From NCBI RefSeq assembly GCF_053078305.1, contig NZ_CP166879.1: a DNA stretch of 64,000 nt, one strand, 5' to 3'. Of the stretch, positions 40,401 through 43,400 are shown piece by piece; within the stretch, counting starts at the first letter, position 1; each line of letters opens with the position of its first letter. The position numbers were made by a program.

Positions 40401-43400
40401 CGCGACCGCGCACGGGTTACCGGGCTGTTGCTGGCGATGTTAATGCGCCTGTTACTGCTGGCGTCAATCTCCTGGCTGGTCACCCTGACTCAACCGCTGT
40501 TCAGCTTCCGCTCGTTTACCTTTAGCGCCCGCGACTTAATCATGCTGTTTGGTGGTTTCTTCTTGTTGTTCAAAGCCACGATGGAGCTGAACGAACGGCT
40601 GGAAGGGAAAGACAGCAATAACCCCACGCAACGCAAAGGTGCGAAGTTCTGGGGGGTGGTGACACAAATTGTGGTACTGGACGCCATCTTCTCACTCGAC
40701 TCGGTGATTACAGCCGTCGGGATGGTCGACCATTTACTGGTCATGATGGCCGCCGTGGTTATCGCTATCAGCCTGATGTTGATGGCCAGCAAGCCGTTAA
40801 CGCAATTTGTTAACAGTCACCCGACCATCGTTATTCTCTGCTTAAGCTTCCTGTTGATGATTGGCTTTAGCCTGGTGGCAGAAGGTTTCGGCTTCGTGTA
40901 ACCAGGTGAATCATTTGATACCAACGAGGGTTTTAGTGAAAGGAGGTGAAATCACCTGTAAGATACTGAAATAAAACAGGTGATACCAATGCGAGCGCGG
41001 AAAGTCTATTTGATACCGATTGTGCAATAATTAGTCGTTTATTCTAAAATCGGCAACACTTTTGATACTACGGATTGACGCTTAAAATGGTTTTAAAAAG
41101 GCTTAAAACGCTTTTCTCCAGATTGTCTTTAAAGGAGTGTACCACAGCACAAAATTTGCACCACTCCCTTACGCACTAGCCTTTTTCTGGGTTACATTTA
41201 AATGATTAACCTTAGCTTCACATTCTTCATAAATCTCTCTTGCTTCAGAATCTGACATATCCTTTAACCTTAAAGCAAGCTCTCGGCGAAAACCGCTAAG
41301 TGCATGTAATTCCTGAATATTATCATCCAATAAGATCGTTAGAAAATCAGCCCCCTTTCTGCCAAGCAATCGGGCTAATTCTAGTTGCTCATCGGTGCTG
41401 AGAGAGGACAGAATTGCCGTAATTGTTTGATTTGCATTATCTAAATTACCTGCATCGACAGTTGAACAACATGGAGTGCTTGGGGTATTTTCATCAGAAC
41501 CAAAAGCTAACCAATTTAAACTCACGTGCTCTTTATTTGATATAAGGCAAGCCATTTTAAAAGAGGGTTCTGTGCCTTTGTGTATGTAGTTATTTAAGGT
41601 TGATACAGGAACCCCCCAATCCTTTGCTGCTGCCCTTACACTCCGCGTCCCGATCAGGCTTAGTAAGCGGGCTTTAAAACTTTCTTTTCCTGGTGCATCA
41701 AAAGAAAAATTTCCATTCTCTTCAATCATTTTTTCTTTTCCTCATAACATATTGAAATAAAAAGAGATAACCAAATAAAACCCACTTCAGCCCACGGAGA
41801 CAAAAGAAAAAGCTATTTTTGCTTTACATGGACTACATTTGGATCAATACTTGTATCAAACTTGATAACAAAATTTAGTTATCAAATTTCGTAACTTTTT
41901 AGGATAGATGAATCATGGCGAGAAATGAAGTTAAGCCTGATTGGCATCCTCAAAGAATCTTGGGGGAAGTCAGAGCCAGAGAAGGAAGTATGAGGGCGCT
42001 GGCCCGTAAAGCTGGCGTAGGTCAGAACAACCTGTACAACGCGGTATACCGTCATGTTCCCAAGTATGAGGGGATTATTGCGGAATGCCTAGGTGTGCCA
42101 CCCGAGGAGATTTGGCCCAGCCGCTACATTCGTAAGGTCGCGTAATTATGTTTGCTTCAGTTAAAGAGCTGGTTGGATTACCGGGAATGCCGGGAACGGA
42201 GCAAGGCGTCCGCTATTCAATCAGGAAGTATGCAACCAGCGAAACCAGCAGACGCCGCCAGGAAGGCAGTAAAGGTTTTGAATACAGCATCGACTGTTTA
42301 CCTGAAGTGACGCAGCAGGCATTGCGTGAGCGCTACGCCCTGCAACTGATGACGCAAAAAGTCGATGAATCACCGGCTCCGGTGGTGACAAAGGCCAGAC
42401 GCTCGCCTGCCGTGGTTGATGCGGTGGAGGCATATCGCGGATCACCACAACTGATGGTTGAACGCCTTAATGCCCTGACTGAAAACCAGCGCCAGGTGGC
42501 TGATGCACGAATCGCGATCGTCAGCGAAGTGATGAAAGTCGCGCAACACCCCGGTTTCAGCTGTGCGAAAGCTATCCGGTTTATCGTTGACAACCTGGCA
42601 CGTTCGCAACTGGACGAGCGCATTGTGGCAATGGTTGAGACGGCGAACGCCAAAAAGGGAAACAGCCGTGCGTTGAGTGAAATAACGCTGAAACGCTGGA
42701 TTGCGGCCTTTAACAAGGCGCAGAACGCCGCTGAACGCCTGCTTTTACTGGCACCGGGTAAGCGCCAGGAAATAAAAGCCGAAGATATTAACTGGCTGCC
42801 CGAATTTCTGGCGCAGTATCGCCAGTCAAACGGCCGACCAATGACCGAGGCTTACGAGGATTTTGTCGCTGAATGGCAGCACCGGCACGCTGATGAGCCT
42901 TATATGCTCGATATCATGCCGTCTTATGACACCATTCGCCGCGCAATGAAGAAACTGCCGGAAGTGGTGAAACAAAAAGGCCGGGTGACCGGCAGTGAAT
43001 ACCGCCAGCTTGAGGGATTCACGCGCCGCGACTGGTCCAGAATGCCGGTGAATTATGTCTGGATTGGTGACGGTCACGGCATGAAGCTGAAATGCGCACA
43101 CCCGGTTCACGGTCGGCCATTTGCACCGGAAGTGACCTTTGTTATCGACGGTGGCACGCGCTTTGTGGTGGGCTGGAGCCTTGACCTGGCTGAAAATGTT
43201 TTCGCCGTAGCCGGTGCCATACAGCACGGCATTCGCCATCACGGCAAACCGTTTCTGTATTACTCGGATAACGGCTCCGGGGAAACCGCCGACATCCTGG
43301 ATAAGGAGGTTGTGGGGATACTGCCGCGACTGGGGATTAATCACCCGACCGGGATTGCCGGTAATCCGCAGGGACGAGGCATTATCGAACGGCTTAACCG

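Follow-up and report, generated by a model that had tools for sequence, protein, structure and literature searches.

Probable left end (attL) of an Sp18-type Mu-like prophage in yegH, with three putative transposase-binding sites and a conserved spacer block

The window analysed here is a stretch of 64,000 nucleotides of contig NZ_CP166879.1 (NCBI RefSeq assembly GCF_053078305.1), taken as one strand. At position 40897 the gene yegH (TerC family) is broken off by a mobile element, and the first 176 bp of that element, 40897-41072, very probably form the left attachment end (attL) of a Mu-like transposable prophage of the Sp18 type, one that entered yegH by transposition and has at this end three binding sites for its transposase. 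This assignment was made by comparison of sequences. The features of the end are listed below; element coordinates count from 40897.

40893-40896, no strand: probable left copy (TTCG) of a 4-bp target duplication in yegH; the right copy would lie beyond the window.
40897-41072, plus strand: probable 176-bp attL module of an Sp18-like transposable prophage; the family set compared here had 27 left ends, of which 14 were distinct.
40897-40922, plus strand: terminus and putative site L1 (TGTAACCAGGTGAATCATTTGATACC), with the core TTGATACC at 40915-40922 (element 19-26).
40923-40984 (element 27-88), no strand: part of the L1-L2 spacer that is conserved and has GTGAAA/GGTGA(A/T) units; candidate region of the packaging site (pac).
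40944-40957, no strand: imperfect palindrome AGGTGA-AA-TCACCT, invariant in 14/14 distinct ends.
40951-40984, no strand: 9-bp perfect inverted repeat, ATCACCTGT (40951-40959) and ACAGGTGAT (40976-40984), with 16 nt between the arms; it overlaps the palindrome.
40980-40987, plus strand: GTGATACC, a lineage-specific look-alike counted earlier as a fourth copy, with one mismatch to the motif.
40985-41006 (element 89-110), no strand: hypervariable spacer patch, 9% of positions invariant.
41010-41017 (element 114-121), plus strand: core TTGATACC of putative site L2; TTGATACC, TTGATACT or TTGATATC in 14/14 distinct ends despite diverged flanks.
41062-41069 (element 166-173), plus strand: core TTGATACT of putative site L3, conserved.

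The host/prophage junction was located with a megablast search in which 40500-41300 was compared with 5,426 complete genomes of E. coli. Up to 40897 yegH was matched in 5,400-odd of the genomes; there the match stopped, and from 40896/40897 on the matches were to a mobile element lying elsewhere, in other genes (an RHS gene, csiR, wzzB). The yegH junction of the window was found in none of the 5,426 genomes. The first bases of the element, TGTAACC, follow the truncated yegH directly, and the interval of the original prediction, 40897-41070, was thus correctly placed. The genes to the right of the end that bear on its assignment are as follows.

41169-41729, minus strand: immunity repressor, 186 aa, CI-type helix-turn-helix (HTH).
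41915-42145, plus strand: Ner-like early regulator, 76 aa, HTH_35.
42148-44235, plus strand: transposase A, 695 aa; Pfam HTH_Tnp_Mu_1, Mu-transpos_C and, weakly, rve.
42481-42750, plus strand: A residues ~112-201, co-varying with the end-repeat motif in a segment comparison.
44307-45239, plus strand: MuB-type AAA+ target-DNA activator, 310 aa; Pfam Phage-MuB_C and AAA_22.
53921-54502, plus strand: small subunit of the terminase, 193 aa, of the Mu gp27 family (57% identity to Mu gp27); it is proposed to read the spacer block.

With the repressor, the Ner-like regulator, the HTH_Tnp_Mu_1/Mu-transpos_C transposase and the MuB-type ATPase on its right, the element was assigned as a Mu-like transposable prophage with its left terminus at 40897. 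Full copies are 38.4-40.6 kb long and the window ends 23.1 kb into the element, so its right end lies beyond the window. Six complete copies were therefore fetched: L001 (O157 strain Z1825), Sp18 of O157:H7 Sakai (L003), L004, L005, L006 and L011, the last inside the Shiga toxin 1 (Stx1) phage LC727895. The 23.1 kb of element in the window aligned collinearly with Sp18 and L001 at 93-98%. L001 has a left end identical to that of the window and was 95-98% collinear with its 23 kb of element. Sakai Sp18 and many E. coli copies matched element bases 1-176 only, at 93%, before the immunity region diverged. Sp18, annotated as a Mu-like phage in sorM, belongs to the same family as the window prophage, with a collinear genome and the same type of right end, but the two differ in the immunity module and in their site, sorM in Sakai and yegH here. 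The family was present in 232/5426 E. coli genomes (280 left ends and 280 right ends) in many different genes. An IMG/VR scan with the transposase (60 loci), together with the E. coli copies, gave the set of 27 Sp18-like left ends, 14 of them distinct, that was used below. Sp18 has been reported to be intact and efficiently packaged without circularisation (PMC2669165), and related copies to occupy variable insertion sites, the interiors of Stx phages included (PMC10132054).

Exact TTGATACY occurs three times within 40897-41070, at 40915-40922, 41010-41017 and 41062-41069. All three cores were present in all 14 distinct left ends as TTGATACC or TTGATACT, with one TTGATATC; the L2-L3 interval and the sequence past L3 diverged among the same ends. 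The three direct copies have a core of about 10 bp, (A/T)TTTGATAC(C/T). The original prediction had counted four TTGATAC(C/T) copies. Three of these stood as exact and conserved, and the fourth, GTGATACC at 40980, did not: it was found in only 1/14 distinct ends, where the others have GTGATGTA, GTGATGTC, GTGATCGA and so on. A fifth candidate, GATACT at 40962 (element 66-71), also varied across the 14 ends and was rejected. Since three cores were kept in 14/14 and the extra look-alikes were variable, the left end was taken to have three conserved sites, like that of Mu. In the whole window TTGATACY was counted 11 times against 3.4 expected, a number reached in 0/100 shuffles. Three of the matches (two plus, one minus) fall within 290 bp of AT-rich host DNA at 7890-8177, far from the prophage, and this cluster was judged to be chance.

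All six full copies carry TTGATACY in inverted orientation at the right end (TTGATACC, TTGATACC, TTGATACT), at 19-26, 41-48 and 76-83 from the right terminus. Read inward from the terminus, all six right ends are TATAGCGCGGCGATTTTTTTGATACCGATTTGCATTTCATTTGATACCGCTGAAAAACGCCGATACGCAACTTATTTGATACT, with a degenerate GATACG at 62-67. The whole element has 8-9 copies of TTGATACY, six of them terminal and opposite in orientation at the two ends. The original prediction had turned on related repeats at the other end, and these are present, inverted, in the six full copies. L1 and R1 lie at equal distances from their termini in the full copies, in Klebsiella Kp4866-3 and in Yersinia vB_YpM_5. Of the copies that are not terminal, one TTGATACC stands between the A and B genes (44283-44290, minus strand); L001, L003 and L011 have it at the corresponding position and L004-L006 lack it. 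An internal direct TTGATACC at 61384-61391 (~20-21.8 kb into every full copy, 6/6) falls inside the major head subunit gene and is probably just conserved coding sequence. The first ~13 bp of the right end contain a GC-rich block common to Mu (L008), L001, L009 and L010 despite different transposases and cores: TGAAGCGGCGCAC in Mu, TATAGCGCGGCGATT in the Sp18-like elements, TGTAGAGCGGCGATT in Kp4852-3 and TATAGCGCGCGAAA in Kp4866-3.

Target duplications were read from the junctions of insertions taken from L001, L003-L006, L011 and L081-L086. All nine complete insertions had exact 4-bp duplications (AGCT, TAAA, ATCA, TACC, GACG, AGAG, ATTC, TTAG, CGAA), and the GenBank annotation of LC727895 likewise gives a 4-bp duplication. 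Models with a 5-bp duplication, in which a terminus is shifted by one base, fitted only 3/9 and 2/9 insertions and were rejected. The duplication is 5 bp in Mu and 6 bp in B3 (PMC8705779). The termini depart from the canonical TG...CA: the right end was always ...GCGCTATA-3' (L001, L003-L006, L011), that is ...TATA-3', and the left terminus was TGTA (window) or TATA (L005, L006 and several IMG/VR copies). A TA start at the left is also seen in relatives: TATGAAG in vB_YpM_5, TATGACC in L075, TAAGAAG in L076. The Sp18-type combination of a 4-bp duplication and a TA-3' right terminus, set against 5 bp and 5'-TG...CA-3' in Mu, suggests a transpososome geometry unlike that of Mu.

Site positions in Mu were measured on AF083977 with YRCGAAA. 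These blocks are the established MuA sites L1-L3 and R1-R3, reportedly described by Craigie, Mizuuchi and Mizuuchi in 1984. Counted from each terminus, the two sets of positions were as follows.

Mu (AF083977), YRCGAAA cores: left 20-26, 125-131 and 165-171; right 20-26, 42-48 and, inverted, 57-63.
Sp18-type family, TTGATACY cores: left 19-26, 114-121 and 166-173; right 19-26, 41-48 and 76-83.

L1, L3, R1 and R2 agree within one or two bases. Both systems have three sites per end, an R1-R2 distance of 22 bp and a long L1-L2 spacer, and in both the repressor, ner, A and B genes lie at the left and com-mom at the right. The earlier description of an arrangement like a Mu left end with a different consensus was borne out on both counts: the cores parallel the L1-L3 layout on AF083977, the first site being at the same distance from each terminus, and the consensus is TTTGATACY, not YRCGAAA, with a transposase 22% identical to MuA. 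No YRCGAAA occurs at the Sp18-type site positions, and the spacer sequence is unrelated to that of Mu. The Yersinia phages vB_YpM_5 and Tongde and the Klebsiella phage Kp4866-3 belong to the same transposase clade and have TTGATA(C/T) cores in all three left ends, but their spacers are Mu-like (CCGGGAGGA..TGGAT..CGGGAT), without AGGTGA units or the palindrome. Tn7-like ends, with multiple TnsB sites, are likewise asymmetric multi-repeat arrays served by a DDE transposase and an AAA+ target selector; they differ from the Sp18-type in element class and proteins, in their 5-bp duplications and in having no phage packaging.

The nearest phage relatives of the window A protein were transposases of Yersinia, Klebsiella and Haemophilus SuMu type. 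Its N-terminus matched the enhancer-binding I-alpha domain of MuA (PDB 1TNS). The core motif changed with the transposase (identities are to the window A unless stated otherwise).

Kp4866-3 (A 57%), vB_YpM_5 (81%) and Tongde (56%): core TTGATA(C/T).
Kp4852-3 (A 41%): core TTTGCAY at corresponding positions.
Phages and prophages with A 72-77% identical: core TTCAAGATAA, in three left-end copies.
Prophages with a Mu-type A (61% to MuA) and a genome otherwise shared: core CACGAAA.

In vB_YpM_5 and Kp4866-3, for which right ends were available, TTGATA(C/T) lies at the same positions on both ends. Among eight representatives, similarity of the first 26 bp correlated with identity of A (rho 0.60, p 8e-4, the pairs not being independent) and showed no correlation with identity of the terminase small subunit. 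A chimeric pair narrowed the comparison. The A proteins of L075 and L076 are 90-100% (mostly 96-100%) identical from about residue 200 to the C-terminus and 36-50% identical in ~112-201, and the cores of the pair differ, TTTGATACC in L075 and TTCAAGATAA in L076. In the same segment the globally distant Kp4866-3 is nearer to the window A than the globally close L058 and L050 are. By alignment the segment falls in the region of MuA where its end-binding subdomains lie. The comparison localises the putative end-recognition determinant of A to about residues 112-201.

From the position at the junction, the inverted copies at the other end, the equal distances to the termini, the conservation and the co-variation with the transposase, we infer, as strongly as computation allows, that the prophage's own A protein, a DDE transposase, binds at the TTGATACY cores. 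The end-binding domain of A (~residues 112-201) would read L1 (19-26), L2 (114-121) and L3 (166-173). These three sites and the inverted R1 (19-26), R2 (41-48) and R3 (76-83) would assemble a Mu-type transpososome, which would cut at the terminal 3' (C/T)A and then attach both ends to the target at positions staggered by 4 bp. Several observations weigh against this picture. The right end of the yegH insertion itself lies beyond the window, and the inverted copies were seen in other full copies. The I-beta and I-gamma domains of MuA were not detected in the A protein by Pfam and PDB sequence searches. L2 lies 11 bp, or one helical turn, nearer to the terminus than in Mu; R3 is direct at 76-83 and not inverted at 57-63; and the six Sp18-type sites clearly share one block of ~10 bp, whereas the 22-bp sites of Mu have two blocks. 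The comparison as a whole supported a region that would behave as a Mu attL and belong to the broad class of Mu-type transposable-phage ends. As it lacks the MuA consensus, the 5-bp duplication and close kinship to MuA, it was not assigned to Mu proper (Muvirus).

The immunity genes next to the end varied on their own. Repressors of five copies were only 23-51% identical to each other while the end sites were invariant. The first ~40 residues of A, which hold the I-alpha match, also varied between copies, with identity down to 12-37%; from about residue 45 on, almost all 40-residue blocks of A had 90% identity or more, and the lowest had 82%. Because the repressor and the tip of A vary together and the rest is fixed, the immunity module (window 41073-42270 versus L003-L006) is exchanged as one unit. 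In the copies compared, the end sites and the remainder of A stay fixed together.

Between L1 and L2, 87% of positions in the 62-bp spacer block were invariant in the 14 distinct left ends, against 9% in the following 22 bp. The block holds the units AGTGAAAG, GGTGAAAT, CTGAAAT and GGTGAT, and GGTGATTT on the opposite strand. The original prediction had described a perfect 14-bp palindrome as part of the transposase-site array, and neither part of that description held. The sequence AGGTGAAATCACCT at 40944-40957 (reverse complement AGGTGATTTCACCT) is imperfect, with arms AGGTGA and TCACCT (6+2+6) around a non-symmetric AA, and it sits in the separate conserved spacer block, outside the site family. 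The window has 65 inverted repeats whose arms are 6 bp and whose loop is 2 nt or less, or ~0.18 per 174 bp; at that chance frequency the palindrome is not significant alone, and its weight comes from its invariance in 14/14 ends. The corresponding spacer of L075 and L079 (small terminase subunit 88% and A 77% identical) has the direct repeats GAGGTGAAAG, GAGGTGTAAG and CAAGTGAAAT and no dyad. By this comparison it is the repeated unit, not the symmetry, that persists in the spacer block.

Packaging of Mu begins at the left end (PMC5977238). For the Sp18-type end we propose that the spacer block with the palindrome is possibly part of the pac site and would be read by the terminase small subunit. 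Spacer types were compared with transposases and small subunits across the relatives. Units GGGAT/GGGAA were found in Mu, vB_YpM_5, Tongde, Kp4866-3, L058 and L050, and GTGATCT-like units in L076 and L077. The spacer types do not keep to the transposase types: L076, whose A is of TTCAAGATAA type, and L077, whose A is Mu-type, share a unit and have terminase small subunits that are 95% identical, and in L058 an A of the Sp18 clade goes with a GGGA spacer and a small subunit 100% identical to that of Mu. The small subunit of the Yersinia phages scored against that of the window exactly as Mu's does (57.0% identity, 192 bits) and appears to be Mu-type. A variable segment of the small subunit was paired with the units as follows.

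LSR[ST]GLNRYA: spacer units GGGA.
LS[PS]AAISREA: spacer units GTGAAA.
LSRGAVWRLA: spacer units GTGATCT.

The spacer type thus appears to follow the class of this variable segment rather than the transposase. The AlphaFold model of the small subunit is all-helical (predicted local distance difference test, pLDDT, 79), and a PDB sequence search with the small subunit gave weak matches only. An early form of the pac idea, by which the small subunit of Kp4866-3 was expected to be more Mu-like, proved wrong. A number of points tell against the pac proposal. Similarity of the spacer did not correlate significantly with overall identity of the small subunit (rho 0.19), and L058 and L050 have a common spacer with small subunits of only 47% identity. 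The palindromic symmetry is gone in L075 and L079. A Foldseek search of the small-subunit model against the PDB gave no significant fold match, and the placing of a recognition helix in the small subunit is a guess. The association with the spacer may possibly come about through linkage to other late genes. In Mu itself, Groenen and van de Putte are reported to have mapped pac, in 1985, to about nt 32-54.

The same block might instead be an accessory of the transpososome that aids the pairing of L1 and L2: a place where HU or IHF bends the DNA, or several half-sites contacted by a second subdomain of the transposase. HU acts in the L1-L2 spacer of Mu; AGGTGA recurs within L1 (element 8-13) and again at 49-54, inverted at 56-61, and at 82-87; and spacer similarity does not follow overall small-subunit identity, all of which would suit such a role. 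Yet the spacer unit changes among phages with the same core, being GGGA-type in vB_YpM_5 and Kp4866-3 with TTGATAY cores and different in L076 and L058 though both are TTCAAGATAA, and similar spacers go with unrelated A types (GTGATCT in L076/L077, GGGA in Mu/L058). HU binding is, moreover, not sequence-specific, which leaves an invariant block of 62 bp unexplained. We consider an accessory role rather unlikely, and rate the pac proposal somewhat higher.

Three other explanations were weighed. A hairpin acting as a terminator, or a small RNA, could end the leftward repressor transcript, and the 9-bp perfect inverted repeat with its 16-nt loop does lie downstream of the repressor gene; but 40800-42200 held no terminator-like site (0 found, 1.4 expected in shuffles), no T-run follows the stem, the region of the spacer block had no Rfam match at E up to 1, and the 6-bp palindrome would allow a loop of 2 nt only, which makes this very unlikely. 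It is extremely unlikely that the immunity repressor or Ner uses the repeats and palindrome as operators to control early transcription. The repressor gene is within 300 bp and the dyad of the palindrome is operator-like, but repressors only 23-51% identical between copies would have to read invariant repeats and an invariant palindrome, the repeats recur inverted at the far right end, adjoining mom, and they lie downstream of the repressor stop codon, outside the divergent promoter region 41730-41914. A chance cluster of motifs in AT-rich DNA, of which the loose group of three at 7890-8177 might be an example, is refuted by the comparative data, namely the fixed positions to both termini, the 14 distinct ends, the several genera and the co-variation with the transposase, and its probability was rated as practically nil. 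The assignment of 40897-41072 as a Mu-type attL with three transposase sites was retained.

Some further observations concern the rest of the element. Relative to Mu it is a mosaic: the terminase large subunit is 72%, the small subunit 57% and the transposase 22% identical (42148-44235 versus 53921-56166). Prophages L075-L080 have a common middle region with either an Sp18-clade or a Mu-type transposase. L001 has an IS3-family insertion at 19249-20426, after the minor head protein gene, which accounts for its extra length (40.6 kb versus 38.4-38.8 kb). A 'tRNA-OTHER' feature is given in the RefSeq annotation of L001 (20446-20525), L004 (25360-25439), L005 (25320-25399) and L006 (18574-18653), where it separates the gene for the minor head protein from that for virion morphogenesis; the spot corresponds to ~59.07-59.19 kb of the window, and ARAGORN found no tRNA anywhere in the window.

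A literature search found no paper that describes Sp18-type end repeats or pairs TTGATAC with Mu-like phages, and in the published accounts of Sp18 and its relatives the ends are not described. Transposase-site arrays at Mu ends are nevertheless textbook knowledge and Sp18-like prophages are familiar from Shiga-toxin-producing E. coli, so the result amounts for the most part to recognising an ordinary feature correctly. For a widespread E. coli prophage family it gives the end sites and the exact termini, by which its elements can be delimited precisely. The chimeric relatives point to A residues ~112-201 as the end-recognition determinant, and to a candidate pac region. More tentatively, the left end might consist of two independently evolving parts: cores that would be re-specified together with a swappable segment of ~90 residues in A, and an L1-L2 spacer that would be a separate short-repeat cassette (GTGAAA/GGTGA here, GGGAT in Mu, GTGATCT in others) and serve as the pac signal for the matching class of small subunit, the transpososome of this clade using a 4-bp stagger and tolerating TA-3' termini. 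If such a two-part module is real, the natural chimeras would be a ready-made map of the determinants of transposition and packaging specificity in transposable phages.

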